From NCBI GenBank assembly GCA_964580705.1, contig CAZOKY010000001.1, positions 1,224 through 65,223 on the forward strand: 64,000 bases of DNA, in the 5' to 3' direction. This document shows, piece after piece, positions 3,475 to 46,817 of this stretch. The stretch's first letter is position 1. Each line of letters starts with the position of its first letter. Under the pieces are notes generated by a model. That model worked only from the letters and a program-made list of their open reading frames with translations. It was not told the origin of the DNA and ran no database searches. A program made the position numbers and the translations under genes. Source of the stretch: Candidatus Micrarchaeota archaeon. Its GTDB lineage: Archaea; Micrarchaeota; Micrarchaeia; Norongarragalinales; Norongarragalinaceae.

Positions 3475-4185
3475 TCAAGCGCGGCGTGAAAAACGAGGTT
3501 CTAGTTTCTTGTGAATTCCAGCCGTGATAGCGTCCGAAATTTCTTCAGACATGAAACCGTGCTTTTCAGACGCCGCCGCGTCAGCCACGTGCAAGTAGCT
3601 ATTCAAAAGGTAACGCGTTTCCTCGCGTTCGCGGCGGTTTGCACCGCGCGCTTCATCGATAGCGCGTTCAATCGATAGCCGGTGCCGTTCGAATTCAGTC
3701 ACTTTTTTAAAAATCGCTGGAACTTCGACGTCAAACTGCTTTTCGTCCTCGCTCGGTTTTACTAAAACCGGTTGCCGGAGATAAAAATTAAGCAGCGTCG
3801 GCAACGCCGTGCTGCGCAACTTGGTTGCGCGTCCAGTTAAAGAATGCAGAAAACCAAAAGCGCGAACTAGAAAACCCGGTTTCAACAGCGTGTTGTGATA
3901 GGAAATTATTAGAGCATCAGGATTTTTAGCGCGCAAACCGTCGAAAAACGCTTGGTTTTCAGGGAAAAACCGAGCGTTTAGTCGAAACGGAAACTGCACA
4001 AACGGTTTTTTAGTAGTCAAGCCAAGCAGCCTGTGGTGAACGCTTAACTCTCTTGGAAAAGTTACGAAAGATACTTTGTGCCCCAGCGCTTCAAGCTTCT
4101 CGCTAACGCGTTTAGCAATCGGCGCCGCAGTCAGTTCGTTCGGGTCTTCGTCAACAACAAAGATGGCTTCATCCAAGCTATTCAC
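3475..4185 (-). CDS. hypothetical protein, translationally coupled to argS
   Basis: Track ORF 3475..4308 overlaps argS by 127 nt. An in-frame GTG at 4185 overlaps the argS TGA (GTGA), giving VNSLDEAIFVVDED... No family recognised. Confidence 0.45.
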   Translation of the reverse strand: MNSLDEAIFVVDEDPNELTAAPIAKRVSEKLEALGHKVSFVTFPRELSVHHRLLGLTTKKPFVQFPFRLNARFFPENQAFFDGLRAKNPDALIISYHNTLLKPGFLVRAFGFLHSLTGRATKLRSTALPTLLNFYLRQPVLVKPSEDEKQFDVEVPAIFKKVTEFERHRLSIERAIDEARGANRREREETRYLLNSYLHVADAAASEKHGFMSEEISDAITAGIHKKLEPRFSRRA

Positions 4186-5954
4186 ATTTTCTCGGGCGCG
4201 CTGATTCCGAGCAACGCAAGCCCGTTCTCGATGACGCGAAGCGACGCGCCCACGATTTGCAAGCGACGCGCCTTGTCCTTTTCGTCGTCCGCCGCGAGAA
4301 CGGGACACGCAGCGTAAAAAGAATTGAACGCCGCACAGTAACGCAACAGGAAATCGCAGACTTGGTGAGGCTGCATCGCTCGCGCAGCGCTTTCGACGAC
4401 GAGCGGGAATTCCGCTGCGAGCGCGAGAAGCTGCTTCTCTTCCCTTCCAAAAACAGCGTTCTTGCCTGACTTGGCGGTTACGCCCGCATCCTCCGCTTTC
4501 GCGAGAATCCCCCTGCAGCGCACCAACGCGTACTGAACGTAAGCGCCAGTATCGCCTTCGAACGTCACCGCCGCAGCCGGATCGAAAACAATGTTTTTCT
4601 CAGGCGACACCCGCAGGAAAGCGAAACGCGCGCTTCCCACGCCGATTTGCTTCGCTATCGCATCGATTTCTTTCGCGTCGTAGTCGGAGCCGCGGCGCGC
4701 AAGCACTTGCTTCCTCGCCTCCGCAATTACTTCATTCAGAATGTCTTCGAGGAGAACGACGTTTCCTTGACGAGTCGACATTTTCCCGCTCGGCAACGAA
4801 ATCAACCCGAAAGCCACGTGCTTCAAGTGAGGCGCGTACTGCCTGCCCAAAAGGTCAAGGATTTTGAATACTTGCTGGAAATGGTTTTTTTGCTCGCTCC
4901 CGGTAACGTAAACGCATTCCGTGAAGCGATGCTTTTCGAAGCGGGTTTCCGCAAGCGCGAGATCGCGCGTCGAGTAAAGCGTCGTGCCGTTGCTGCGCAG
5001 CACTATGAGGTTCGGCAAAGCGAATTTCTCTAAATCGCCGACTATTTCCCCGCCCTTGTCGCGGAACGCCACTCTTTTTTCGAGGAGTTCAACGGCGATT
5101 TTCTTGGCAAGCGGAACCATATCGCTGTCGAAAATGGTTTCCTCGAAAGAAACGCCTAGAAGCGCGTAATTTCGCTGGAAGGCGTCAACGCTGATGCGCC
5201 GCACTTCCGCAAGCTCCTTCTTGAGTTTTATTTCCCCGCTCTCCATACCCTCGACGATTACCCGCGCCTTCTCGAGCAACTCAGGATTCTCCTCAATGCG
5301 CTTGTGAATCTTCACGTAATAATCCAGCAAATCCTTCTCGTCGTTCAGCTTCCGCTTTTCCAGCTCGTGCAACGCGAGCATGAGCTTCGCCGTCTGCGTT
5401 CCAGCCTCGCAGAGATAGTTCGAACCGACGACGCTCGCGCCAGAAGCGCGCAGCAAACGCATAATGCTGTCGCCGAGAATCGTGGAACGAATGTGCCCCA
5501 CGTGCATGGGCTTCCCGACGTTCGGAGAAGAGTAATCGATTACGACGCGCCGTTTTTTTCCTTCCGAGTTCGAACCGTAACCCGCACCGGCAGCGCCTAC
5601 TTCCTCGTTCAGCGCAGCGTAAAAAGCGTCGGAGTAAACGAAGTTAACGTAAGGCCCGAGCGCGCTCACCGACGAAAACGACGGCGGAAGATTCTTCTCC
5701 AACTCCGCAGCGAGCTTCTTCGCGATTTCAACCGGATTCTTTTTGGCTTGCTTCGCGATTTCGAACGACGCCGCACTGCTTAAATCCCCGAACTCGAACT
5801 TCGCCGGCCGCGCCACTGCAGGCGCGACTTTAACGGAAAAAAGTTTTTCCGCAGATGAAGCGATTGCCGCGGCTGCTTCGCCTTCGGCGCGCTTTTGAAG
5901 GCAAACCGCATTCTTCACGCCCGCAACGTTCTTCGCTTTCATCGGTTTAGCCAT
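4182..5954 (-). CDS. argS: arginyl-tRNA synthetase
   Basis: HVGH class I motif (PMHVGHIRSTILGD) and a DALR-type C-terminal region. The start was chosen at ATG 5954 (MAKPMK); the track start at 5972 is TTG. Confidence 0.85.
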   Translation of the reverse strand: MAKPMKAKNVAGVKNAVCLQKRAEGEAAAAIASSAEKLFSVKVAPAVARPAKFEFGDLSSAASFEIAKQAKKNPVEIAKKLAAELEKNLPPSFSSVSALGPYVNFVYSDAFYAALNEEVGAAGAGYGSNSEGKKRRVVIDYSSPNVGKPMHVGHIRSTILGDSIMRLLRASGASVVGSNYLCEAGTQTAKLMLALHELEKRKLNDEKDLLDYYVKIHKRIEENPELLEKARVIVEGMESGEIKLKKELAEVRRISVDAFQRNYALLGVSFEETIFDSDMVPLAKKIAVELLEKRVAFRDKGGEIVGDLEKFALPNLIVLRSNGTTLYSTRDLALAETRFEKHRFTECVYVTGSEQKNHFQQVFKILDLLGRQYAPHLKHVAFGLISLPSGKMSTRQGNVVLLEDILNEVIAEARKQVLARRGSDYDAKEIDAIAKQIGVGSARFAFLRVSPEKNIVFDPAAAVTFEGDTGAYVQYALVRCRGILAKAEDAGVTAKSGKNAVFGREEKQLLALAAEFPLVVESAARAMQPHQVCDFLLRYCAAFNSFYAACPVLAADDEKDKARRLQIVGASLRVIENGLALLGISAPEKM

Positions 5955-6081
5955 ACCTTTTATAGTATGCAAAGCGAATTATTAAATGCTCGAACCCGCC
6001 GAAACAAACGAGACGGACGAAACAGTCGAAGCAATCTAAACAATATTCTTTTAACAACAATCAACGGGAGTTGGTAATCTA

Positions 6082-6963
6082 GTGTTTACCGCAAGAAAAA
6101 AAGCTGGGAAAACAAAACCGGCCAAAACCGTAAAAAAAGTCAAACTCGCACCAAAGCAAGAAAAACAGAAAAAAACTCGCGAACCGCTGATACCGCGCTT
6201 TCGAGGCGTATCGCTCCAGCTAGTCGCCGTATTCGTAATGGCTCAATGCATTGCTTTGCTCGCGGGCGCGCAATTCCTCTCGCAACAAGTAAGCTTCGTG
6301 AAAGACTCCGCGAGCATGGGAAACGCGGCGTTCTTATTCGCGTACGTCATCGGAGCCACGCTGTTAATGCTCGTATTGATAAAATACTATAAAGGCAACA
6401 AGCTCTTCATCCTCGTCGAATACGCGCTCATATTCTGCACCGTTGAATTGTTCGCCTCTCTTTTCATCAACGAACTCGCGGCGTTGGCGGCCGCCGCAGT
6501 CGCCGTAAGCGTCCGCGTCGCGTTTCCGCGCCTGCGCAACATCATCCTCGTACTCGCCATAGCGATAGTCGGCGGATTGCTCGGCGCAAGCCTCGACTTG
6601 CTTCCCGCAGCCGCGTTCGCGATTGCCCTCGCCGTTTACGACGTAATCGCCGTCTTCTACAGCAAGCACATGGTTACGCTCGCGAAAGCGCTTGACAAAC
6701 GCGGAGCCGCGTTCGCAGTCCACCTGCAAGACGGAAAAGAAAGCATTCAGTTGGGAACGGGCGACGTCGTTATTCCCGCGATGCTCAGCGTCAGCGCCTT
6801 GCGCATAGCGCCGTTAGCCGGCGTATTCGGACTCGCTGGCTCGGTTCTCGGCTTGATCGTGATAATCGTGCTCCTCGAAAAATTCAAGGGGTACTGGCCC
6901 GCGCTGCCCCCGATTGTTTTCGGCACGCTCGCCGCAATCGGCGCATACGTCTTTCTGGCGTGA
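6082..6963 (+). CDS. presenilin / signal-peptide-peptidase family intramembrane aspartyl protease (A22-like)
   Basis: YD (LAVYDVIAVF), GxGD (LGTGDVV) and PAL (YWPALPP) motifs across multiple TM helices. A Lys-rich 40-aa N-terminal extension precedes TM1; GTG start. Confidence 0.75.
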   Translation: MFTARKKAGKTKPAKTVKKVKLAPKQEKQKKTREPLIPRFRGVSLQLVAVFVMAQCIALLAGAQFLSQQVSFVKDSASMGNAAFLFAYVIGATLLMLVLIKYYKGNKLFILVEYALIFCTVELFASLFINELAALAAAAVAVSVRVAFPRLRNIILVLAIAIVGGLLGASLDLLPAAAFAIALAVYDVIAVFYSKHMVTLAKALDKRGAAFAVHLQDGKESIQLGTGDVVIPAMLSVSALRIAPLAGVFGLAGSVLGLIVIIVLLEKFKGYWPALPPIVFGTLAAIGAYVFLA

Positions 6964-7153
6964 AGAGCGACGCGAGACGCGAGCTTTAAAAAGGGTTTTA
7001 GGCATAAGAATAACCTCGGCTCCTTTTACGATAATGGGGAGGAACCCGAGCCCGCCTTGCGGCGGGCGAACGGGTTGAGAACCATTGACTTACGAATGGT
7101 TTGAAGCACAAGAAATGCTAGTAGCAACAACAGCAAAGCGTGGTGTTAGAAAC

Positions 7154-7453
7154 ATGGATTTAGCTAAATCAATTCGGTTCGCAGTCGACACCGGAAAAGT
7201 CGAACTCGGCTTAAAACAAACGCTGAAAATCGCGTTAAACGGAAACGCGAAACTAGTCATAATCGCGAAAAACTGCCCGAACGACAGCTCAGCCGACGTA
7301 AAACGCTTTACGACGCTCTCGCAAACGCCGCTCGTCGTATTCGAAGGAACGAGCGTCGAACTCGGAAACGCGTGCGGAAAACCCTTCCCCGTCAGCGCGC
7401 TCTCGGTAATCGAGGAAGGAAACTCGGACGTGCTCAAAACGATAAAACACTGA
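7154..7453 (+). CDS. rpl30e: ribosomal protein L30e
   Basis: LVIIAKNCP ... VELGNACGKPF. Start set at ATG 7154 (MDLAKS...). The track ORF starts upstream at 7085. Confidence 0.85.
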   Translation: MDLAKSIRFAVDTGKVELGLKQTLKIALNGNAKLVIIAKNCPNDSSADVKRFTTLSQTPLVVFEGTSVELGNACGKPFPVSALSVIEEGNSDVLKTIKH

Positions 7454-7469
7454 AAAATGCGTTGAAAAA

Positions 7470-7922
7470 TTGATTGAAAGATTCAGGGGATTTATTTTGC
7501 CTACGATTTCAAACGACGAACTCGCGATGCTCAACACGCTCGAACGAGCGACGGGCGCCAAGGCGAACGACGTTTACGCGACCAACGAGTGCGTCACGTT
7601 CATCGTCCAACAAGGCGACCTCGGAAAAGCAATCGGCAAGCAAAGCGCGAACCTCGAACACTTGCGCAAGGCGTTCGGCAAAAACGTTGACCTCGTGGAA
7701 GACGCGGACACTCTTCGAACGTTTCTCGGCAACGTTTTCCGAGGAGTAGAGTTTCTCAGCGTCGAAGAAAAAGAAGACGCGGCGAACGGACGCAAAACAG
7801 TTTTATTGAAGGTAAGCGAAGCGCACCGAGGCAAGGCAATCGGCCGCGGCGGCGAGAAAATCAACCGCGCGCGAGCGCTCGTCAAACGCAGGTTCGGTTA
7901 CGACGACGTAAAAATATCGTGA
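7470..7922 (+). CDS. nusA: archaeal NusA-like transcription termination/antitermination factor (two KH domains)
   Basis: KH GxxG motifs (KAIGKQSAN; KAIGRGGEKI). Position is conserved between L30e and S12. TTG start at 7470; the true start is uncertain (7497/7527 are alternatives). Confidence 0.8.
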   Translation: MIERFRGFILPTISNDELAMLNTLERATGAKANDVYATNECVTFIVQQGDLGKAIGKQSANLEHLRKAFGKNVDLVEDADTLRTFLGNVFRGVEFLSVEEKEDAANGRKTVLLKVSEAHRGKAIGRGGEKINRARALVKRRFGYDDVKIS

Positions 7923-8007
7923 TAAAAAAACAGCGATTGAAAAAAAATTAAAGAAACAATTATCGAAAAAACGAAAAAAGTAAAAAGCATTTAAGGTGGT
8001 TTTGAAA

Positions 8008-8436
8008 ATGGCTCGAGGAGAATTCGCAGGACGCATACTCAAAAACCAGCGCAAGCAAGCGCGCTGGCTCAAGAAAACGTGGAAGCGCAAAGCCCTCGGA
8101 CTCAAGGAAAAATACGACCCGTTGGAAGGAGCGCCGCAAGCAAAAGGCATCGTACTGAAAAAAACGGGTAAAGAGCAAAAGCAGCCTCACTCGGGAATCG
8201 TCAAGTGCGTCACAGTGCAACTCGTCAAGAACGGCAAGAAAGTCAGCGCGCACTGCCCTCGCGACAAAGCAGTCGAGAAAATCGACGAACACGACGAAGT
8301 CTTAATCGAAGGCCTCGGCGGCTCGCAACGCGGGCAAATGGGTTCGATTCCCGGCGTGCGTTATAAAGTCATTCAAGTCAACGGGATATCGCTCGAAGAA
8401 TTGCGTTTGAACAGGAAGGAAAAACCGAAGCGTTGA
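8008..8436 (+). CDS. rps12: ribosomal protein S12
   Basis: Sequence typical of S12/S23e ([18 protein letters not shown] ... SIPGVRYKV). ATG 8008 (MARGEF); the track starts at GTG 7996. Confidence 0.9.
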
Positions 8437-8473
8437 GAACGCTGAAAGCAAAAAAGCAAAAGGTGTTATCGCA

Positions 8474-9259
8474 ATGGCTGAAGAAAAAAAGATTGAAGAA
8501 AAAGAAAAACCCGGCGCGCCCGCTGAAGAAAAAGCGGAAACGAAAGCCGAAGCCAAAGGAAGCGGAGCGGAAAACGTCGTCGCCGAAGAAAAAGCGAAGG
8601 CTGCGGCCGCAGCCGCAGCGGCTGCCGAAGCGGACGAAAGCAAGATTAGGATACCGAAGCAAAAACTCTTCGGAAAGTACGATTACGACTGCATAGTCGT
8701 CCGCGACCGCACGCTCGAACCGTACATTTCGCTTAAGCCAGTCGCGCTTCCGCACAGTTTCGCGCGCCACGCCAACAAATCCTTCGGGAAAGCGCGCATG
8801 AACGTAGTTGAGCGTCTCGCGAACAAGATGATGCGCGGCGGCACGGGCGAGAAACTCGGCGGAAAAGTCATTCGCACTCAAGGACGCCTGCAAGGCAAGA
8901 AAAGCCGCGTTCTCCGCATAATCGAGGAAGCGATGGACGTCGTAGCGGTGAAAACCAAGAAGAACCCGTTGCAGTTGCTTGTGAAAGCGGTCGAAAACGT
9001 CGCGCCGCGCGAAGACGTCACGCGCATCCGCATGGGCGGCGTCTCTTATCAGGTCGCTACGGACGTAAGCCCGTTGCGCAGGCTCGACATGGCGTTGCGC
9101 AACATCGCGCTCGCCGCGATCACGAGCGCGTTCAACAAGAAGACGAAGCTCGGGGAAGCGTTAGCGCACGAAATCGAGCTCGCCGCGGCGAATTCGCAGG
9201 ACAGTTACGCCGTCAAACGCAAGAACGAGACGGAACGCATCGCCAAGAGCGCGAGGTAA
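8474..9259 (+). CDS. rps7: ribosomal protein S7 with a ~60-aa E/K/A-rich N-terminal extension
   Basis: S7/S5e core (KLFGKYDYD ... RIRMGGVSYQVATDVSPLRR) preceded by a low-complexity stretch that includes poly-Ala. Confidence 0.85.
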   Translation: MAEEKKIEEKEKPGAPAEEKAETKAEAKGSGAENVVAEEKAKAAAAAAAAAEADESKIRIPKQKLFGKYDYDCIVVRDRTLEPYISLKPVALPHSFARHANKSFGKARMNVVERLANKMMRGGTGEKLGGKVIRTQGRLQGKKSRVLRIIEEAMDVVAVKTKKNPLQLLVKAVENVAPREDVTRIRMGGVSYQVATDVSPLRRLDMALRNIALAAITSAFNKKTKLGEALAHEIELAAANSQDSYAVKRKNETERIAKSAR

Positions 9260-9310
9260 GCAGTTAAAAATTAAAAAAAACTTCAATTCAAAGGAGTAGT
9301 GGTTTAGGAA

Positions 9311-11497
9311 ATGGCAACGAAAGAAGCAGTGGCGGCACACGTTTCGAAACTCATGCGCAACCCGAAAAACATCAGGAACATGGGAATCGTCGCGCACGTC
9401 GACCACGGCAAAACCACGTTGAGCGACACCCTCGTCGCCCGAGCGGGGTTGATTTCGCAAGAACTCGCCGGCGAGCAGCGCGTGCTCGACTATGATGAAC
9501 AAGAGCAAGCGCGCGGAATCACCATCAAAGCCGCGAACATCTCGATCGCGTTCAACCAAAACGGCGAAGACTACCTAATTAATTTGATCGATACGCCGGG
9601 GCACGTGGACTTCGGAGGACACGTGACTCGCGCCATGCGCGCGGTAGACGGCATAATCCTCGTAGTCGACTGCGTCGAAGGAGTAATGCCGCAGACGGAA
9701 ACCGTGCTTCGTCAAGCGATGAAGGAGAAAGTCAGGCCCGTGCTCTTCATAAACAAAATAGACCGGCTCATGAACGAACTCAAACTCGACTTCAACGGAA
9801 TGCAGGAACGCTTCAAAAAAATCATTAACGGAGTCAACAAGCTCGTCGACGATTACGGTCCGCCTGAATTCAAGGAACAATGGAAATTGAAAGTCGATTC
9901 GGGAAACGTCGCGTTCGGCAGCGCGTTCCACAAGTGGGCGATTAGTTACCCCATAATGAAAGAGAAAGGAATCACGTTCAAGGATATTTACGACAAGTGC
10001 GTGAGCGGCGACCACAAATCGCTTCAAGAGAAAGCGCCGCTCGGAGACGTCATTCTCGAGATGGCGGTAACGAAGCTGCCGAACCCGCTCGAAGCGCAAA
10101 AATACCGCATCCCGGTTATTTGGCACGGAGACCAGAATACGCCGCAAGGCAAAGCCATGATCAACTGCGACCCGAACGGTAAAGCGTGCTTCATGGTGAC
10201 CGCGATTCAAGTCGACCCGCACGCGGGAGACGTAGCCGTCGGCCGTTTGTACAGCGGAGTAATCAAGAAAGGAACCGAGTTATACCTCGCCGCGCAGTAC
10301 GCGCGCGAAAAGATTCAAGGCGTGGCAGTTTACATGGGAATCGACCGCGTTACGATCGATGAAGTGCCCGCAGGCAATATTGTTGCGCTCGTGGGGTTAA
10401 AGGAAGTTTACGCCGGCGAAACCGTTTCCGAAGAAGAAATGGAACCGTTCGAGAAAATCAAGCACCACTCCGAGCCAGTCGTCACGAAATCAATCGAAGC
10501 AAAGAACCCGCGCGACCTCATGCGCTTAATCGAAGCCCTCCGCAGAATAGCGAAGGAAGACCCGACGGTGCGCGTCACCCTCAATCAAGAGACGGGAGAA
10601 CACTTGCTCAGCGGAATGGGAGAACTCCACCTCGAAATTATAGAATATAAAATTCGTAACGAGCGGAAAGTAGAAATCGATACGGGACCGCCTATCGTCG
10701 TTTACCACGAGACGGTAGTCCACGAAAGCCCTGAATTGGAAGGAAAATCGCCGAACAAACACAACCGCTTTAAAGTCATAATCAAGCCGCTCGAAGAAAG
10801 CGTTTTGAAGGCGTTCAAGGAAGGCGAAATCGACGAGAAAGCTAAAGGCAAAGACTTGACGGAACGCCTCCTGAAAGCAGGGCTCGCGCGCGACGAAGCC
10901 AAAAACATCATTAAAGTCTTCGAAAACAATCTCTTAATCGACTCGACGAAAGGAGTGCAGTACCTCCAGGAAATCAAGGAGTCGCTGCTTGAAGGATTTG
11001 AGGAAGCAATGACTGCCGGCCCGCTTGCGAAAGAACGCGTAGTCGGAGTCAAAGTCATTCTAACTGACGCGACGATTCACGTGGACCCCGCACACCGAGG
11101 GCCAGCACAGATTATTCCCGCAATCCGCCGCCCCATCTTCGCGGGCATGCTGCTCGCAGGCGCCGTCCTTCAAGAGCCGAAACAGAACTTGTTCGTGACT
11201 GCGCCGGTGGATTACATGAGTTCGATAATCGCGCAAATCCAGTCCCGCCGAGGGCAAATCGGTGAAGTCAACCAGGAAGGCGAAGCCCTCGTCATCAAAG
11301 CGAAGGTGCCCGTCTCGGAAATGTTCGGTTTCGCGAACGAAATCCGCAGCGCATCTCAAGGCCGCGCGGTTTGGTATTACGAGTACGCCGGATACGAGAA
11401 ACTCCCGGCAGGACTCCAGCCGCAAACGATTTCATCAATCAGGAAGCGTAAGGGAGAGCCGGAGACTCCGCCCACGGCGCGCGACTTCATGGATTAA
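9311..11497 (+). CDS. fusA: translation elongation factor 2 (aEF-2)
   Basis: AHVDHGKTT and DTPGHVDF G-domain motifs. 728 aa, downstream of S7. Confidence 0.95.
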
Positions 11498-11536
11498 ACG
11501 GTATTTTGTTCAAAAGCCGCCTGCAACGACGGCTTT

Positions 11537-13060
11537 TTATTTTCTTTTTTTGTTTACTAGCGACAGCAGTTCGTCTTTTATTTTTGCGGCATTGTCACGA
11601 TTCAAGCCGTCCACGTGCATTTCAGCGGCGGAAGAAGCTCCAACCGTCGACAAGTGCACGTCCACCAAGTCGAACGCGTTGTCGAAAATATCTTGGTCGA
11701 CGAAAACGTTTTGCACGCGCGAATAAGGCGCGTAAGCCGTCGTCCTCCCGAAAACCCCCTTGGTTACTTTAAGCACGCCGTCCGTCGTGGCGTAAGCGAA
11801 ATTCTTGAAGTAAGCGCGCTCGTAAACGAATTTGATTAGAATCAGCGCCGCGAACGCGGCAAAACCGTACGGAAGCAAGTTAACGTAATTCGGGAACGGC
11901 GACAAAAAGAAAGGCGCGAAAACCATGGCGGCAATGACGAGAAGGAAAGCGTAAACCGCGAACTTTGTCGTCCTCTTCAAAGGCACCGCTTTCTCGAGAG
12001 GAAACGCTTCGCGCAAATTTCGGTAAACGCCTTTTCCCGCGGCGCCTCCTTTCTCGAACAACAAGTCCTTCAAGGCGTGCGCGTCTTTCGACTTCAAAGC
12101 CGGAATGGAAAAAGTCGAGTAAAGCTCGCCTTCCCTCTGCCCGTCCTGCGCGCCCGTCTCGATTTTCAATGAAGCGATTCCGAAAAAGCGGTAGAAAAAC
12201 GGTTCGTAAATCACGGCGTTTTGAATTCGGTCTAGCCTGCAGTTCGACGTCCTCAGCCGAAAAAGCGAGTACGTAACGTTAAGTTGGCTTCCGCTTACGC
12301 TATAGGAGTAAGGCAAAATCATTGAAACGCCTGCGACAACCCCGGCGACGGCGGAAACGATTAACACGACTAAAGCCGTTTGAGCGTTCGCCGTAACGGT
12401 TCCCGCGTTTGCCACGATGGCGCCTCCGACAAAAAATGACATGACCGCGAGAGCCATTGCGGCGCCTATCAGGAAATAAGCGAGAAACGCAGGCCCCGAA
12501 GCCATTTTGTAAGGCACAGACGCGGTCTCTGCGACGCCCAGCCTCGCTCGAGACGAAACAACTTTTTTTCCGACAACTGATTCCGTCTTCGGCTTGCTTA
12601 GCCTAGCCAATATTTCTTCCCGAAGCCGGCTCGCAACGCCAGCGTCCAAACCGACCAGCATGTTGCCGGAAGAAGCCGCGCTCATAGTGGATATCTTCAA
12701 ATTCTTCAATCCGAGAAGCAAGTCTAAGAATTCCGCATTTTCTTCAACGTTTTGAACCTGGTTGTACAGAAACAGGACTTGCTCCTTGTTGAAAACGCCG
12801 CTTTTCTTGAACACGCCCGCCTCGCGAACTTCGTATTCCGCGCTGCGCCACCATAAATACCCGTAAACGATTGAGCCGACGCATAAAACCAAAAGAAGAA
12901 GTGGCTGGCTCGAAAGCCACAGCGCGGACGAAATCCCTTTCCCAAGGGAGTTCATGAAAACAAAACCAAAAAGGAATAGTAGTGCAACAACAGCCCCAGC
13001 GTAACGGCGAATCAAGTAACGTACGGACGGCTTGTATACGCCGTAAACATCTTCAGTCAA
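11537..13060 (-). CDS. YdbT-like membrane protein with three bPH_2 (DUF304) repeats
   Basis: TM hairpins alternate with repeated modules (FNKEQVLFLYNQVQNVEEN; VFVDQDIFDNAFDLVDVHLST). 507 aa; overlaps the upstream ydbS-like gene by 8 nt. Confidence 0.6.
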   Translation of the reverse strand: MTEDVYGVYKPSVRYLIRRYAGAVVALLFLFGFVFMNSLGKGISSALWLSSQPLLLLVLCVGSIVYGYLWWRSAEYEVREAGVFKKSGVFNKEQVLFLYNQVQNVEENAEFLDLLLGLKNLKISTMSAASSGNMLVGLDAGVASRLREEILARLSKPKTESVVGKKVVSSRARLGVAETASVPYKMASGPAFLAYFLIGAAMALAVMSFFVGGAIVANAGTVTANAQTALVVLIVSAVAGVVAGVSMILPYSYSVSGSQLNVTYSLFRLRTSNCRLDRIQNAVIYEPFFYRFFGIASLKIETGAQDGQREGELYSTFSIPALKSKDAHALKDLLFEKGGAAGKGVYRNLREAFPLEKAVPLKRTTKFAVYAFLLVIAAMVFAPFFLSPFPNYVNLLPYGFAAFAALILIKFVYERAYFKNFAYATTDGVLKVTKGVFGRTTAYAPYSRVQNVFVDQDIFDNAFDLVDVHLSTVGASSAAEMHVDGLNRDNAAKIKDELLSLVNKKRK

Positions 13061-25979: not shown

Positions 25980-26089
25980 TGGGCCCAAAGGGAATCGAAC
26001 CCTTGATCTTTTGCTGAACTAAGAACGAAAAACTCGTTCGAAGCCCTTTCGCACGTCAAGCGAACGTCTTACCACTCGACTATGGGCCC
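25980..26089 (-). tRNA. tRNA-Val (GAC) with a ~38-nt intron in the variable-loop region, a non-canonical position
   Basis: Hand-folded. Acceptor GGGCCCA/UGGGCCC, D-arm GUCG-AGUGGUAA, anticodon arm UUCGC-UUGACGU-GCGAA, T-arm AAGGG-UUCGAUU-CCCUU. 43 nt lie between position 43 and the T-stem instead of ~5. Confidence 0.7.
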
Positions 26090-34755: not shown

Positions 34756-34945
34756 TTTTTCAAAACCTTAAAGCCAAAAGCCTTATTTCTAAAGAACAAG
34801 TTTTTCCGAAGCGCTCTTTTGACGAAAGGACTCTTTTGCAGAGTCAATCCCTCCTGCGCGAAAACCGCGAAGTGGTTTAGTGCAGTTCGAGCGGGAAAAA
34901 CAGTTAAACGACGAACACTAATTTTGCGAAAGGTGGTTTTTAAAC

Positions 34946-35983
34946 CTATTGAAAGCGAGTCAACGTATCCTGTTTTCCAAGCAATATGTTAAAAGCATTT
35001 TCGGCTTCTCGCGCAGTATTTCGCTCAATATTTTCTTTGATGTGATGAATAACCCCGGAAAATTTAGCATCCGGTTTGGTAACTATAATCAGATCGTAGT
35101 GAAAAGGAATTCCCGTTCTAACTGCAATTGTTTCAACAGTTTTTCCAGTTTCTCGTATTTTTTCGACATAATAATCGAGAGGCGTTTTCGTTCCAAAATC
35201 GGAAGAACCCAAAAATCGTTTGAGGGCGCCTAGGTTATGTGGATTTCGGGTAACGTTGGAGGTTGGAAAGTTTATTATCAAATCACAGTATCGGTGTTCT
35301 AAAAGTTTGTTTATTGTCGCCCAATCGGCGTCTAACCCCTGGTTATCAATAAAGACAAGAGCGTGATGTTTTCCTGATTGAGTAAGTTCGGCAAGTATGC
35401 CGTCAACGGCTAAATTACAATCGCCATGAATTAGCTTAAATTGACTTTTACTGAGACCGGCGTTAGTCAGTATGTCTAAACGGCCGCGCAAAGCATCTAA
35501 GTTAGTTTTGTTTTCGTCTACAAAAAACATTTTCTTAAAAGGCGGGATAGCGGTGGCAGCTATGAGCGGAGAGCCGACAATATAATGTTTTTTAGAACAT
35601 TTCGAGCATTTTTCAGGTTGTGGCTCGCAATCTCGATATTTACACACAAGATCAATGCCTGAATTCGAAAGTAAGTCAATGAAATAAAAATTATCACCTA
35701 TGTTTCGACTTATTATTGGAACATAGCAGCTATGGGCGTATGCGGCGAGGCAATAAAGTTTGAGCGGCGCCCAAAAGTTCGCTAGAAAAAAACTACTGGG
35801 GTCAACTTCGACTAAGGCAGGCATGACCGACGAGTATTTTTTAAGTATTGGATCAAGACGGTCGGTAAAAGATTTTTTTGGTTTATCTCGCATACATCGG
35901 CGCCAGTAATTTTTTATCAGATTTCGTGTTCTGCGTCCTAAACATTTTCTCGGTTCGAGGGTTATATTCTTTTCTCGTACCAA
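34946..35983 (-). CDS. hypothetical protein with a C-x6-C-x2-C cysteine cluster, in an AT-rich island (candidate partner of the adjacent radical-SAM-like enzyme)
   Basis: 345-aa ORF with markedly lower GC than its flanks. Cys cluster CEPQPEKCSKC. The true start is probably internal (M at 35893 or 35824), because the track start overlaps the upstream gene by 100 nt. Confidence 0.5.
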   Translation of the reverse strand: MVREKNITLEPRKCLGRRTRNLIKNYWRRCMRDKPKKSFTDRLDPILKKYSSVMPALVEVDPSSFFLANFWAPLKLYCLAAYAHSCYVPIISRNIGDNFYFIDLLSNSGIDLVCKYRDCEPQPEKCSKCSKKHYIVGSPLIAATAIPPFKKMFFVDENKTNLDALRGRLDILTNAGLSKSQFKLIHGDCNLAVDGILAELTQSGKHHALVFIDNQGLDADWATINKLLEHRYCDLIINFPTSNVTRNPHNLGALKRFLGSSDFGTKTPLDYYVEKIRETGKTVETIAVRTGIPFHYDLIIVTKPDAKFSGVIHHIKENIERNTAREAENAFNILLGKQDTLTRFQ

Positions 35984-36749
35984 ATTTTATGTGACATGAT
36001 ATTCCGTTTTCCTTACAAAAGTCAAGCACTTCGTTAGCATGAGACTCGTAAAAGAATTCATTGTCCTTGAAGGAACTGCTTTTCGTGTTGTAATTCAGCT
36101 TGCCGAAAATAATTTTGTCGACGAAAGAAACGCTTTCCAAAATATCGTTCAAATCCTGTTCTACGAGGTTCGGCGTCGGGTAAGGCTCCATGCTAACCCA
36201 AGTCCGCAAACCCTCGTCATGCAAACGCTTCAAGGCTTTTACTCGCTGGTTGTAAGGCGCGCTGAACGGCTCAAACTCCTTCTTGAAACTAGCATCGTTC
36301 GAAACCAGCGTGATTCCGTACTCGTTGTCGAAACCGTATTTCTCCGCGTCAGCCAGCATTGCCGGGTATAGCCCTTTCGTTAAGACAGTGCTTCTGATTC
36401 CGTACGAATTCAGTTTTTCGATGATTTTAGACGACATTTTCGCTACTTCAGGGTAGCCGTACATGAACGGGTCGGTCGTAAAACACAAGTGAACGAAATT
36501 GATTTTATCGGCGTGCTTGGGAATCTCTTCATCCAATAATTCGAGCGCGTTTTCAACTAGTTTCGGCTTGCACCAGTCAGAGTAAGACTTTACTTTGCCG
36601 AAGCGAATCGCCATCATCATGGCGTAGCAAGGAAAACGGCAGCCGTGAGCGCAGCCTTCAACGTGGTTAATGCAGTAGTCCGCGTATTCTACCTTGCTTC
36701 GGTACAATAGCGACTTTTTTCTGATAGTCTGCATTAACCAACCACCCAA
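35883..36749 (-). CDS. radical-SAM superfamily protein of the SplB / DNA-repair-photolyase-like type (COG1533-like) with a variant Cx3Cx3C cluster motif
   Basis: INHVEGCAHGCRFPCYAMM resembles the SplB-family N..GC.HGC.YCYA motif but carries one extra residue between the second and third Cys. AT-rich coding sequence. Confidence 0.55.
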   Translation of the reverse strand: MGGWLMQTIRKKSLLYRSKVEYADYCINHVEGCAHGCRFPCYAMMMAIRFGKVKSYSDWCKPKLVENALELLDEEIPKHADKINFVHLCFTTDPFMYGYPEVAKMSSKIIEKLNSYGIRSTVLTKGLYPAMLADAEKYGFDNEYGITLVSNDASFKKEFEPFSAPYNQRVKALKRLHDEGLRTWVSMEPYPTPNLVEQDLNDILESVSFVDKIIFGKLNYNTKSSSFKDNEFFYESHANEVLDFCKENGISCHIKFGTRKEYNPRTEKMFRTQNTKSDKKLLAPMYAR

Positions 36750-36803
36750 AGAAGCTAAGGAATTGGCTTTTTAATACGTCTCGCAGCCTTGCTTCCAGTA
36801 AAC

Positions 36804-37421: not shown

Positions 37422-37451
37422 TACTTCCCACCTCGAAAAAATCGTTTTATT

Positions 37452-37568
37452 TCACTTCTGCAGAACCATGTCTTGCCCGCAGCAAACGAGCGTTCCCCCG
37501 CCCGCTTCCACCACGCTCACGACGTTCCCGCAAACCTCGCAACGATAAACTTCATTAACCGCCGTCAT
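37452..37568 (-). CDS. dsr: desulforedoxin (Dx, 38 aa; rubredoxin-like Cys4 iron centre), not in ORF track
   Basis: My own translation: [38 protein letters not shown]. Near-identical in pattern to Desulfovibrio gigas desulforedoxin (C-x2-C ... CC). Confidence 0.75.
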
Positions 37569-37592
37569 TTCTCTCACCTTTTCTTTTCGCTT

Positions 37593-38247: not shown

Positions 38248-39075
38248 TTAAAAAAACACGGTTACGAGCAACGCGAGCAGAAGCATGTTGCCGAAATCCG
38301 CGATGCTCGTCGTGATTGGAATGAGAAAATTGCTTGGATCCTCGCCTTTACCGAAAAAGTAGAATCCCGCCGCGATGGCGACGAAGAAAAGAACGGTGAC
38401 GAGCAGAACGGCGTCTATCAACGCTATCGCGAAAACCTTGAACGCGACGAGCGCGCTTACGGCAAAACTCGCGCTCGAAATCACGAGAGCCGCGGCTGCG
38501 CCCAGCGTTGCGGTGAATACCGCGAGAAACAAGACTTGCATGAAGAGCTTGTGCAACTCAGCGTTCTTCCACCAACCGCGTTCGCAGCCCCTTACTTTTC
38601 CTTCGTGAAGCATAGTCGAAAAACGAGAGGAAATAATGGAAGCGTAATCCCCGATCATGTCGTTCAACGCGGGCAGGAGGACGACGAGCGGCACTATGGC
38701 AACGAACGCCGCCTTTATGTTTTCGAGCGCGAATCCTCCGAGCGAACTAACTATGGAAGCCAGCAACAGAATCTTGATGCTTTCCTTGATTATGGTTCCA
38801 GCGACGTTCGAGTGGGCGCCGTACTCTTTCACGTAAAAAAGCGTTTTGCGCGACAACTTGTGCTTCGCATGCAAGTCGTGCTGCAGCGGGTGAAAGTGCT
38901 TGCGCGGCAACGCGCGCAGGCGCTCGAGCTTGCGAGGCAAACGCGGCGTAACGACGACGCGCTTGTGCGCGTGCGCTTCGTGAAACACGCGCGCCAACGG
39001 GTTCCCGATTTCCTTCAAACCGGTTTTCCCGTCGTTTTTGTTTTCGGCTTCTTTTTTCCCGTTTTTGTTTTTCAT
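38248..39075 (-). CDS. MgtE-domain divalent-cation transporter, C-terminal half (COG1824/SLC41-like), separate gene
   Basis: PITTSIADFGNMLL-type D..G motif typical of MgtE TM domains. ATGA overlap with the upstream half. Confidence 0.55.
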   Translation of the reverse strand: MKNKNGKKEAENKNDGKTGLKEIGNPLARVFHEAHAHKRVVVTPRLPRKLERLRALPRKHFHPLQHDLHAKHKLSRKTLFYVKEYGAHSNVAGTIIKESIKILLLASIVSSLGGFALENIKAAFVAIVPLVVLLPALNDMIGDYASIISSRFSTMLHEGKVRGCERGWWKNAELHKLFMQVLFLAVFTATLGAAAALVISSASFAVSALVAFKVFAIALIDAVLLVTVLFFVAIAAGFYFFGKGEDPSNFLIPITTSIADFGNMLLLALLVTVFF

Positions 39076-39650
39076 AAAACCGCCAAAGCTATCAGCAACG
39101 CCGCAATGCTGGTGATGTCGCCCGTAGATGAAACGAACGGGCCCATGATGTTGTTCGGGTCATGGCCTTTCTTGAACAAGTAAAGCGTGGCGGCGAGAGT
39201 CAACGGAATCTCTATCGCGTTAGCGATTACGCCCGCCAGCAAGGGAAGGAAAACGATTTTCCAGAATACCTGTTGAAGGAAAAAGTAGTTGAAGGCGAAC
39301 GCAACGACGCCCAGCACGAGGGAAACGAATACGGCGAGAAAGAACGACGCGGCGAGGTTTCCGACGATTATTTTCGACTTGATTTTGTCGGGGTTGATGA
39401 CGCGCAGAAACAAGCCGGAACTCAAGCGCGAAGCGAACGACGAACTGATGTTCCCGCGCATTTCCAGAAAGCCGGGCAAAATAATGAGCATTCCCGGCAG
39501 CAGCAACAATTTATCCGTGTACGCGGCTAGCGCGGCTCCCGCAATGACTCCGCCGGTTAAGGAAACGAGTTGCGACGAAAACATTTCGCGGAAGTCGCGG
39601 TCGAAAAACCGTTTATCGCCCGTTTTGCCCGCATTAAAGCCTGCAGTCAT
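39072..39650 (-). CDS. MgtE-domain divalent-cation transporter, N-terminal half
   Basis: PFVSSTGDITSIAALLIAL motif. Homologous repeat of the downstream gene. Confidence 0.55.
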   Translation of the reverse strand: MTAGFNAGKTGDKRFFDRDFREMFSSQLVSLTGGVIAGAALAAYTDKLLLLPGMLIILPGFLEMRGNISSSFASRLSSGLFLRVINPDKIKSKIIVGNLAASFFLAVFVSLVLGVVAFAFNYFFLQQVFWKIVFLPLLAGVIANAIEIPLTLAATLYLFKKGHDPNNIMGPFVSSTGDITSIAALLIALAVL

Positions 39651-45477: not shown

Positions 45478-45503
45478 GGAATCAACTAAGCGGAAAAAAA
45501 GAG

Positions 45504-45574
45504 TGCGGCCGCCGGGAATCGAACCCGGGTCTCAAGCTTGGAAAGCTCGAATCATACCATTGGACCACGGCCGC
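45504..45574 (-). tRNA. tRNA-Gly (UCC)
   Basis: Hand-folded: GCGGCCG acceptor, anticodon loop UUUCCAA, T-arm CCGGG-UUCGAUU-CCCGG. Confidence 0.8.
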
Positions 45575-45626
45575 GCGAAAACGAGAAACCGAATTAAGTT
45601 TATCGATTGCGGGAAATAAAAACGAG

Positions 45627-45700
45627 TGGGGGAACCGAGATTCGAACTCGGGTCACGACCACCCCAAGGTCGTAGCATTGCCAGGCTAGCCCATTCCCCC
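45627..45700 (-). tRNA. tRNA-Pro (GGG)
   Basis: Hand-folded: GGGGGAA acceptor, anticodon arm CGACC-UUGGGGU-GGUCG, T-arm CCGAG-UUCGAAU-CUCGG. Confidence 0.8.
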
Positions 45701-45728: not shown

Positions 45729-46817
45729 TCAAACGCTCGAGAAAGCATTATAGTAAGCTTCATTGTTTTTAACCCATTCGGGAACGCCGCAAGAACGCAA
45801 CGCGCGCTTTCCGAAAGGCAAACCCTGCGAAAGCAGCCAAGAAACAATCGCACGGCTGCAAACCAAGCAACGATAACTACGCGCGCCCGTCTTCGTCGCG
45901 TAAGGAACGCGCAAACCGAATTCTTCCTCAATCACGCCCGCAAAATCGCGCAGCAGTTTTTCCGAAGACGAAACCACGTAAAACTGTTTTCCGTTGCGGA
46001 TAACGTTTCCGTAACGCATGACGTAAGCCAGCAACTTCGCCAAATTCGCGTTCAGTTGAACGGGAATCTCAACGCGCCATTTTTCAGGTTGTTTTTCGGC
46101 GTCAAAACGAAAATCGTTAAACCACAAAGCGTTTTTGTAACCAAGAGGTGCTACAGAATGCGTTTCAGCGACCTTGCGCAACAAGCTGTTTTTCACTGCA
46201 TCACAACCGAAATCGACTTCTCGCTCGAAAGCAGGCAACGACTTGGTTCGAATAAGGAAACTCAACGCCGCCGTGGTTTTACCATCTTTCCTCAGGTTTC
46301 CAGGTTGAAGCCAAGTTCGAGAAGTCGCCACGCCGAATGTTCGTAGCATTTCCTTCAAGTCTTCAACGAAAGCGATTCCTCCGTCAAGCAATTCCTCGCT
46401 CTTGAAAACCTTGAAGCCGACGCTGAAAGAATAGGCATTGCTTTTCTTCGAAATCCAACCCTCGCATTGAAAAGCAGTCGCGAGGTAAGCACGGGAAAAC
46501 GCTCGATTTTCTTTGATCCAACGCGGGACTCGAAAAACGCAAAGCATTTTGTCTCCTTTCGGCGCCCCTGCTTCGAACAACAACCTGCTGACCCGCACGC
46601 TGTTAAAACGGCACTTGAAACTCGTTCCGAAACCAGTGCCTTTCGCGTAACTAGATTTCAAATCGAACTTATTTTTTACCAACGCCTCGAAGTCTTTCAA
46701 CGCTTGCCAGTCGGCAGAAGACAGGTAGAAGTGAGAAAGATTTTTACTTAAGTGGCCGTCGAACGTCACGTAACTAATTATTCGCGCCAAATCAGCGTCA
46801 AAAAAAGTAGAGTTCAC
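45729..46817 (-). CDS. LAGLIDADG-like (double-motif) homing-endonuclease-family protein, free-standing
   Basis: ARIISYVTFDGHLS and AYLATAFQCEGWIS resemble the two LAGLIDADG helices. A possible degenerate third repeat (LLAYVMRYGNVI). 362 aa; immediately 3' of two tRNA genes. Confidence 0.4.
   Translation of the reverse strand: MNSTFFDADLARIISYVTFDGHLSKNLSHFYLSSADWQALKDFEALVKNKFDLKSSYAKGTGFGTSFKCRFNSVRVSRLLFEAGAPKGDKMLCVFRVPRWIKENRAFSRAYLATAFQCEGWISKKSNAYSFSVGFKVFKSEELLDGGIAFVEDLKEMLRTFGVATSRTWLQPGNLRKDGKTTAALSFLIRTKSLPAFEREVDFGCDAVKNSLLRKVAETHSVAPLGYKNALWFNDFRFDAEKQPEKWRVEIPVQLNANLAKLLAYVMRYGNVIRNGKQFYVVSSSEKLLRDFAGVIEEEFGLRVPYATKTGARSYRCLVCSRAIVSWLLSQGLPFGKRALRSCGVPEWVKNNEAYYNAFSSV

Follow-up and report, generated by a model that had tools for sequence, protein, structure and literature searches.

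An inserted radical-SAM/TcmP gene pair beside the ribosomal protein L1 gene of a Micrarchaeota contig, a candidate DNA-directed conflict module

What are the two AT-rich genes that lie between the superoxide dismutase (SOD) gene and the ribosomal protein L1 gene in a contig of Candidatus Micrarchaeota archaeon (GenBank assembly GCA_964580705.1, contig CAZOKY010000001.1, positions 1,224 to 65,223; these 64,000 nucleotides are hereafter called the window), how did they get there, and what may they do? The first two questions can be answered with near certainty. The genes form a cassette made up of a radical S-adenosylmethionine (SAM) enzyme (rSAM) and a protein of the three-Cys-motif partner family (TcmP), and the cassette is a genuine insertion of foreign DNA, since in close relatives the SOD gene is directly followed by the L1 gene. 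For the third question, the reading favored here is that the pair is a mobile, two-subunit module of modification or defence, directed at DNA in conflicts between genomes. Belief and doubt are about evenly balanced for this reading, and the specific chemistry of the pair is much less certain. The features on which the argument depends are the following:

35883..36734, minus strand: rSAM gene, 283 aa (P0001), ATG start
34946..35893, minus strand: TcmP gene, 315 aa (P0121), ATG start
35883..35893, minus strand: overlap of the rSAM stop and the TcmP start, 11 nt, ATGCGAGATAA, from the sequence and public gene calls
34944..36803, no strand: inserted segment of about 1.86 kb, low in GC, from the alignment of the window with the relatives' contigs L161 and L162
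36627..36653, minus strand: codons of the variant [4Fe-4S] motif C28-x3-C32-x3-C36, GCAHGCRFPCYA, from the sequence and the homologue alignment
36768..36776, minus strand: possible archaeal TATA box of the rSAM gene, TATTAAAAA, 34-42 nt upstream of its ATG, from the sequence only
35657..35677, minus strand: TcmP D73-G79 (DLLSNSG), methyltransferase motif-I-like loop with the family-invariant D73 and G79, from alignments; aligned with YLDTHAGAG of Escherichia coli RlmJ
35597..35644, minus strand: TcmP C84-x4-C89-x6-C96-x2-C99, four-Cys zinc-knuckle-like insert after motif I, from alignments
35336..35353, minus strand: TcmP F181-G186 (FIDNQG), motif-IV-like segment, from alignments; D183 is invariant, and the segment is aligned with LIDPPYE of RlmJ

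The initial annotation of this DNA had described a pair of co-directional, overlapping genes between the L1-L10-L12 cluster and a cluster with SOD and rubrerythrin (Rbr), and this is indeed the arrangement seen on the minus strand, where the two open reading frames (ORFs) fill 34946-36749. The lengths of 288 and 345 aa that it assigned to the products come from upstream TTG codons. The internal ATGs are probably the true starts of both genes: the public annotation of identical contigs gives the same products (283 and 315 aa), and the N-termini of homologues align to the ATG start. The ATG of TcmP then falls inside the last rSAM codons, which produces the 11-nt overlap; in the public calls on contig L157 this overlap is found at 3842 and 3852.

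The drop in GC content reported for the island is real. Windowed GC falls from about 0.53 to 0.40-0.46 across it, and the island is the lowest-GC segment of 1.8 kb in the window (0.416, against a mean of 0.533 with a standard deviation of 0.023). Among the 74 long ORFs of the window, the TcmP gene has the lowest GC (0.40, z = -4.1) together with a low GC content at third codon positions (GC3 of 0.35, z = -3.4), and the rSAM gene has the third lowest GC (0.449, z = -2.7) with a GC3 of 0.58, which is ordinary and not deviant. The island is thus split in GC3 between its two genes, the host mean being 0.63.

The most direct evidence of insertion comes from two metagenome contigs of close relatives (L161 and L162), retrieved by searching with the L1 protein of the window. 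Their gene order is identical to that of the window, with 84-93% amino acid identity over the two MgtE proteins, Rbr, SOD, L1 and L10, but in both of them 209 bp separate the SOD stop from the L1 start and the cassette is absent. The alignment of the junctions places the edges of the insert at the base after the SOD stop (36803) and at the shared GTTTAAAAACC (about 34943). The sequence GTTTA is found at both junctions and could be a 5-bp repeat, which is weak evidence; no longer flanking repeats, and no convincing terminal or inverted ones, were detected around the island. This empty site, in conjunction with the GC and codon deviation, supports the horizontal insertion that had been proposed from base composition. 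The existence in metagenomes of near-isogenic populations with and without the cassette also provides a natural experiment.

The position of the cassette next to the L1-L10-L12 stalk genes might itself be meaningful. In that case, an RlmJ-like methyltransferase and an RlmN/Cfr-like rSAM would together carry out a housekeeping modification of rRNA or tRNA in reduced genomes, a scenario in keeping with the strong conservation of the rSAM and with the top structural matches of TcmP, which are rRNA and tRNA methyltransferases. Yet, the cassette is missing from close relatives of identical synteny, L1, L10 or L12 lie near an rSAM homologue in only one of 80 genome loci (at a distance of 3 kb), and neither an Rfam family nor a tRNA was found in or beside the island by Rfam and ARAGORN scans. 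The more general idea that the homologues are housekeeping genes syntenic with L1, which the initial annotation had named as an alternative to its own proposal, was rejected on the same grounds of locus counts and of the empty SOD-L1 site. With the hypervariability of TcmP, the prophage occurrences beside restriction-modification (R-M) systems and the presence of two copies with different TcmPs in a single genome (see below), we regard housekeeping RNA modification as quite improbable.

The rSAM protein passes the Pfam radical-SAM model PF04055 (42.7 bits against a cutoff of 29.5, residues 27-206). It remains below the cutoff of DUF5131 (PF07505, the Gp37/Gp68 three-Cys-motif protein; 19.6 against 28.9 bits, residues 18-95 only), for which many of its homologues bear a weak flag, and far below the cutoffs of the COG1533-type NCBIfam models (39.1 of 430 bits for PA0069, 38.1 of 360 for Rv2578c and 33.1 of 410 for mobile-pair B). 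It also matches an unannotated PHROG at 2e-19 and, weakly, the PADLOC model PDC-M41B (4e-5, over 77 of 241 profile positions). A word-indexed search retrieved homologues from more than 6400 clusters at 63-74% identity, in DPANN archaea and in Patescibacteria of the candidate phyla radiation (CPR). The 80 genome loci widen this range to Omnitrophota, Nitrospirae, Methanomicrobia and Firmicutes-type metagenome-assembled genomes (MAGs), and 68 IMG/VR viral contigs encode the protein at 52-58% identity.

The initial annotation had noticed one extra residue in the cluster motif of this spore photoproduct lyase (SPL)-like enzyme, and this peculiarity turns out to be a property of a whole clade. The canonical CxxxCxxC is replaced by Cx3Cx3C, the three cysteines still being present in one loop, and the motif GC[AS]HGCx[FY]PCYA is kept in 120 of the 120 top homologues. 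Among the best 150 of the 50%-identity representatives in an exhaustive search, 81 have Cx3Cx3C and 21 the canonical Cx3Cx2C; the latter form a sister clade (GCxHGCxYC[YF]A, 44-52% identity) that lacks the proline. Since this sister clade has the canonical spacing, the Cx3Cx3C motif is the result of a single proline inserted before the third cysteine, in one clade of a family that is otherwise canonical, and as such it bears on how far the cluster loop of radical-SAM enzymes can vary. In the literature, "CX3CX3C" was encountered only in unrelated or incidental uses. Two further cysteines outside the cluster, C84 and C240, are invariant in the alignment of homologues. By these comparisons, the enzyme belongs to the neighbourhood of SPL, DUF5131 and COG1533, but its clade is distinct from DUF5131 and has no dedicated family model, and its non-canonical cluster spacing is conserved. 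A member of the canonical sister clade (P0253, L243 4001-4768, 51% identical) was observed alone, without TcmP, on a phage-like contig, surrounded by many tiny same-strand ORFs and by ParB_N and R2K_3 genes.

The AlphaFold2 (AF2) model of the rSAM, with a predicted local distance difference test (pLDDT) score of 83 and a predicted template modelling (pTM) score of 0.84, has a fold of the partial or full triosephosphate isomerase (TIM) barrel type. Its 33 matches in the Protein Data Bank (PDB) at E<=1e-3 are all radical-SAM enzymes: the top six are SPL (E 3.6e-7 to 3.9e-6, TM-scores 0.53-0.58, 13% identity), and viperins are found among the weaker ones (E about 1e-3). Fold searches in BFVD retrieved generic phage radical-SAM proteins only, and PDB searches by sequence gave no meaningful match for either the rSAM or TcmP. 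Membership in SplB was considered and rejected, as no SplB model is present among the NCBIfam matches at E<=0.1 and the identity in the fold alignment is 13%. These results also bear on a DNA repair function, in which an SPL-like lyase would reverse a UV or radical lesion recognized by TcmP. The nearest solved structure is an SPL, COG1533 carries the label "DNA repair photolyase" and the Joint Genome Institute (JGI) applies the same name to several of the homologues. Nevertheless, the low identity to SPL and the lack of a SplB match speak against this function, a repair factor would need neither hypervariable or tandem partners nor a linkage to restriction, and the distribution of the pair is patchy and insertional; repair thus seems scarcely probable at all.

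The partner protein had been said to have no recognizable family, but it passes the NCBIfam TcmP model TIGR04474 (82.9 bits against a cutoff of 53), as do divergent partners at other loci (99.9, 82.1 and 59.5 bits), and it matches the PADLOC model PDC-M41A at 2.8e-16 over 177 residues. The kinship with mobile or defence-associated three-Cys-motif cassettes, initially suggested from the general appearance of the pair, is therefore borne out by both of these matches and by the R-M and mobile neighbours described below. The "three Cys" of the family name are presumably those of the enzyme partner and not those of TcmP. The AF2 model of TcmP (pLDDT 91, pTM 0.90) has RlmJ or DUF519 structures as its top 11 Foldseek matches (E 1.4e-6 to 1.7e-5, TM-scores 0.45-0.50), followed by Hen1, Trm1 and Trm5a, and the modelled structure thus indicates an RlmJ-like class-I methyltransferase fold. 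The comparison of the TcmP profile with Escherichia coli RlmJ (from NC_000913) using hhalign is less decisive (probability 58%, E 9.7e-5, 138 columns), but it pairs YLDTHAGAG of RlmJ with YFIDLFAGSG in motif I, the GSPLIA segment, and LIDPPYE of RlmJ with FxDPxG in motif IV. No Pfam match to any methyltransferase family was obtained for TcmP.

Five residues are invariant in the TcmP family: K45, D73, G79, S108 and D183. The sequence around them is less constant, motif I having the consensus DxFAGxG in the family but DLLSNSG in the TcmP of the window, and motif IV being DPPY in RlmJ, DP[FY]x in most TcmPs and DNQG in that of the window. The C-x6-C-x2-C cluster noted in the initial annotation is present, although it comprises one cysteine more and does not define the family, the complete four-Cys cluster being found in only 8 of 118 TcmPs. 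In the alignments it is present in the P0121-P0133 subfamily and in L006. Its pLDDT in the AF2 model is 74-80, and many other TcmPs have instead a C-terminal GMT-like winged helix-turn-helix (wHTH) domain. By the alignments, the cluster is a lineage-specific, zinc-knuckle-like add-on and not a feature of the family, and it may bind metal; its interpretation as an Fe-S site or as a defining feature was rejected because of its restricted distribution.

For the association of the two proteins, TcmP was located with an iterated TcmP hidden Markov model. The genome set consists of the 74 loci with enough upstream DNA, 72 of them distinct (L001/L004 and L002/L009 correspond to the same places). In 62 genome loci, the gene that immediately precedes the rSAM on its strand encodes TcmP; in 2 loci TcmP is convergent, and it is missing from 10 (9 distinct). 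Similarly, it is directly upstream on the same strand in 64 of 68 viral loci, with one other arrangement and 3 loci without TcmP. In about 12 of the viral loci, a single rSAM is preceded by a tandem of two TcmPs. The subfamily to which the TcmP of the window belongs (14 members in a word-indexed search) has the reversed order, rSAM followed by TcmP, in the six loci examined out of six. No third gene is conserved around the pair. Both proteins are also found fused, as P0243 (634 aa) and P0249 (592 aa), the former on four contigs including an NCBI MAG; in L241/L242 the fusion gene (4001-5905) is flanked by ABC-transporter genes.

The two partners do not evolve alike. Across 117 pairs, the median identity of the rSAM is 59% (5-95% range: 53-75%) and that of TcmP 28% over about 188 alignable columns, and the distances of the two proteins correlate only weakly (rho 0.22). 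Such an asymmetry fits a conserved catalytic subunit associated with an exchangeable and diversifying partner, as judged from these sequences, and the weak correlation, together with the GC3 split in the island, may be a sign that partners have been swapped or that the two genes differ in their time of residence. An archaeal MAG (JAZDEO, isolate MEGAHIT-group-0.155) was found to carry two cassettes (L021 and L032), whose TcmPs have 366 and 298 aa.

In the loci without TcmP, the upstream genes of L098 and L076 were checked for a hidden divergent TcmP and are not TcmPs, and those of the other loci are unrelated. The exception is L030 (149-3100), in which two genes lie directly upstream of the rSAM: an ORF of 419 aa and one for a CcrM-like DNA adenine methyltransferase of 272 aa with a DPPY motif. 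This CcrM-like gene could be the result of partner displacement, or it could belong to an R-M pair that merely adjoins the rSAM. The L001/L004 locus has a divergent Dam gene.

The genomic context of the cassette varies. The immediate neighbours in the genome loci are mixed (171 Pfam families in 135 proteins), the most recurrent being methylases and helicase-nucleases of R-M systems: N6_Mtase in 5 cases, MmeI in 4, ResIII in 4 and Eco57I in 3. The subfamily of the window has as neighbours MmeI-type, Type III and NgoPII R-M systems, Vsr, a DDE transposase, ParE and Fic. On viral contigs, the cassette is repeatedly found near an M78/IrrE-like protein, DUF2800, a large serine recombinase and GmrSD, the last of which follows the rSAM in 4 viral loci. 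A close linkage to restriction is seen in 13 diverged viral loci, where a Type III Mod gene lies 1-87 nt (mostly 9 nt) past the rSAM stop and Res begins 2-3 nt after Mod; the identities among these loci are 46-58% for Mod and 66-100% for the rSAM. Operon-like TcmP-TcmP-rSAM-Mod-Res arrays were observed on six prophage-like contigs (L109, L114, L117, L120, L121 and L133, about 3950-12100), with Mod starting 9 nt after the rSAM stop. In L083-L086, which belong to the TcmP subfamily of the window, an ORF of 69-77 aa precedes the rSAM, and an opposite-strand ORF of 66-71 aa and a DDE_Tnp_1 transposase are found past TcmP; neither the small ORFs nor the transposase is present in the insert of the window.

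The insertion polymorphism, the hypervariable partner and this prophage and R-M context disfavor both the housekeeping RNA and the repair explanations. Two other explanations still have the pair take part in conflicts. One possibility is that the cassette is selfish, its product marking the carrier DNA for the maintenance of the cassette itself, as in addiction, or acting as an orphan protective modification that shields the element or prophage from restriction, with no defence benefit for the cell. A compact cassette of overlapping genes that inserts among housekeeping genes, its frequency in viral and prophage contigs, the transposase adjoining it in L083-L086 and the solitary canonical-motif sister in a region resembling phage early genes would all agree with that. 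Nevertheless, this explanation invokes the same biochemistry as the favored one and differs only in the beneficiary, no toxin-like partner is present, and the way in which Type III Mod-Res is linked to the pair, as in an operon, suggests that the pair has been integrated into restriction systems of the host type; we consider this explanation unlikely.

Alternatively, the pair could be a defence effector that leaves no mark on DNA: TcmP would sense infection or bind a nucleotide, and the rSAM would make a viperin-like antiviral molecule or deplete SAM, with an arrest of the phage or abortive infection as the outcome. This possibility draws on the defence-island and prophage accessory context, the matches to PADLOC candidates, the viperins among the weaker fold matches of the rSAM, and the existence of defence systems that contain radical-SAM proteins, such as Ophion (bioRxiv 10.1101/2025.09.30.679545). 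Yet, the best fold match of the rSAM is the DNA-acting SPL and not viperin, and its partner has the fold of a nucleic-acid methyltransferase with motifs of the base-flipping type and often a wHTH domain. Moreover, a DNA adenine methyltransferase seems able to replace TcmP, and there is no nucleotide-kinase or NTP-binding partner. An effector of this kind is thus also rather doubtful.

Coming back to the favored reading of a DNA-directed conflict module, the nearest folds of both modelled proteins, SPL for the rSAM and RlmJ for TcmP, point to a nucleic acid as the substrate, as do the pairing of motifs with RlmJ, the CcrM-like DNA adenine methyltransferase that occupies the position of TcmP in L030 and the precedent of phage M6 gp53 (see below). 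The insertion, the families and folds of the two proteins, the variant motif, their pairing and fusions, the genomic context and the asymmetry in conservation are shown by the data, and the complex in this organism, its DNA substrate and its chemistry are what we infer from them. The rSAM and TcmP would act on DNA as a single complex, in which TcmP would bind DNA, choose the target site and flip out a base, most plausibly adenine or a different base that bears an exocyclic amine, which it may also methylate in most members of the family. The rSAM would then reductively cleave SAM, and the resulting 5'-deoxyadenosyl radical would carry out C-H chemistry on the presented nucleotide; its invariant C84 and C240 might be hydrogen-atom donors or methyl carriers, roles that are speculative. 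The outcome would be marked DNA, or foreign DNA with a lesion, and it would serve in conflicts between genomes either as a protective or epigenetic modification of the carrier DNA or as a defence function. A role in such conflicts would explain the spread of the pair among DPANN archaea, CPR bacteria and prophages and its occurrence beside restriction systems. The most specific version of this scenario, a sequence-specific, radical-based DNA base modification in which TcmP is the interchangeable recognition and base-flipping (or m6A-writing) subunit and the Cx3Cx3C rSAM makes a previously undescribed modification, can be put forward only tentatively.

Several observations weigh against the proposed action on DNA. 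The degenerate motifs of the TcmP of the window (DLLSNSG and DNQG) may mean that this protein is devoid of SAM binding or of base stacking, and RlmJ, Trm1 and Trm5a are all RNA enzymes. The occurrence of rSAMs without TcmP in genome loci and the solitary canonical-motif sister do not speak for an obligate pair. There is no nuclease or other effector near the cassette of the window, housekeeping genes of an ordinary kind make up most of the flanks in the 80 genome loci, and the adjacency to R-M systems may result from defence-island clustering alone. The literature searched yielded no experimental work that deals with a TcmP or with this clade of rSAM enzymes.

If the radical-based modification were true, cellular organisms would have in it their first radical-SAM-dependent system for modifying DNA, one that is widely distributed over DPANN archaea, bacteria of the CPR and prophages, where it would serve as the "M" arm or as a restriction-evading shield in R-M-like conflicts. 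Both the DNA modification and the architecture of specificity and catalysis would be new, and they would be relevant to the epigenomics of uncultivated microbes and to enzyme engineering. The cassette type is already catalogued, as TIGR04474 and as the PADLOC candidates PDC-M41 and PDC-M30, but it is uncharacterized, and the literature on TcmP, TIGR04474, DUF5131/PF07505, PDC-M41/M30, GMT-wHTH and PF22560 yielded passing annotations or unrelated uses only. What the present clade adds is a bona fide radical-SAM enzyme with an expanded cluster motif, conserved at about 59% identity between archaeal, bacterial and viral members. Its partner is hypervariable and has the fold of a methyltransferase, natural fusions of the two proteins exist, and the linkage to Type III systems resembles that of an operon. 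Radical chemistry on DNA as a part of genome conflicts thereby becomes a concrete proposition that can be tested.

Some other features of the window, outside the island, are worth recording. A 110-nt tRNA at 25980-26089 (minus strand), detected by Rfam (60.6 bits) and missed by ARAGORN, probably contains an intron, as an archaeal tRNA may. An ORF of 362 aa (45729-46817, minus strand) with a LAGLIDADG-like domain and a lowered GC of 0.479, just beside tRNA-Gly and tRNA-Pro (45503-45700), could be a free-standing homing-endonuclease-like gene. Two adjacent MgtE-domain genes with a 4-nt overlap (38248-39650, minus strand) correspond to a split MgtE-like transporter, and the public annotation of an identical contig includes a 38-aa ORF with a desulfoferrodoxin N-terminal domain between SOD and rubrerythrin (about 37450-37570).

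Among the systems to which the pair can be compared, the closest are the TcmP/three-Cys pairs (TIGR04474 with DUF5131 PF07505; PDC-M41 and PDC-M30), with which it shares the two-gene cassette, the three-Cys enzyme of the Fe-S type and the mobile or defence contexts. They differ in that the enzyme of the window is not a member of DUF5131 but belongs to a distinct, PF04055-passing Cx3Cx3C clade, and in that the gene order is reversed in its subfamily; PDC-M41 and PDC-M30 are themselves candidates only, for which neither a published function nor an anti-phage experiment was found in the literature searched. SplB (PDB 4fhc and related structures) resembles the rSAM as a partial TIM barrel radical-SAM enzyme that acts on DNA, and it is the best fold match (E 3.6e-7, TM-scores 0.54-0.58), but the rSAM of the window is 13% identical to it, has Cx3Cx3C instead of Cx3Cx2C, is paired with TcmP and belongs to a clade of DPANN, CPR and prophages, whereas SplB is found in spore formers. 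RlmJ/DUF519, the 23S rRNA m6A2030 methyltransferase (PDB 6qe5 and 2oo3), is the best fold match of TcmP (E 1.4e-6), from which it is set apart by the DPPY motif that neither the family (DP[FY]x) nor the window (DNQG) retains and by an hhalign probability of only 58%; contrary to RlmJ, TcmP is hypervariable, mobile and coupled to an rSAM.

The class-A radical-SAM methylases RlmN and Cfr modify adenine carbons in RNA, act alone and have two extra catalytic cysteines. The two invariant non-cluster cysteines of the rSAM family (C84 and C240) recall the latter, although their role here is speculative and no specific sequence or fold match to these enzymes rises above the generic radical-SAM level. 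The Ophion defence system has an architecture that differs from that of the rSAM-TcmP pair. Finally, gp53 of phage M6 is an SPL-like radical-SAM isomerase involved in the hypermodification of thymidine, acting post-replicatively on a DNA base (PMC8989533). Unlike the rSAM of the window, it has a canonical CxxxCxxC and takes part in a multi-enzyme 5-hydroxymethyldeoxyuridine (5-hmdU) pathway with a pyridoxal phosphate (PLP) enzyme and no partner with a methyltransferase fold (PMC8989533). Nevertheless, and with the likeness being one of description, it provides a precedent for an SPL-like radical-SAM enzyme that installs a DNA modification in a setting of genome conflict (PMC8989533).

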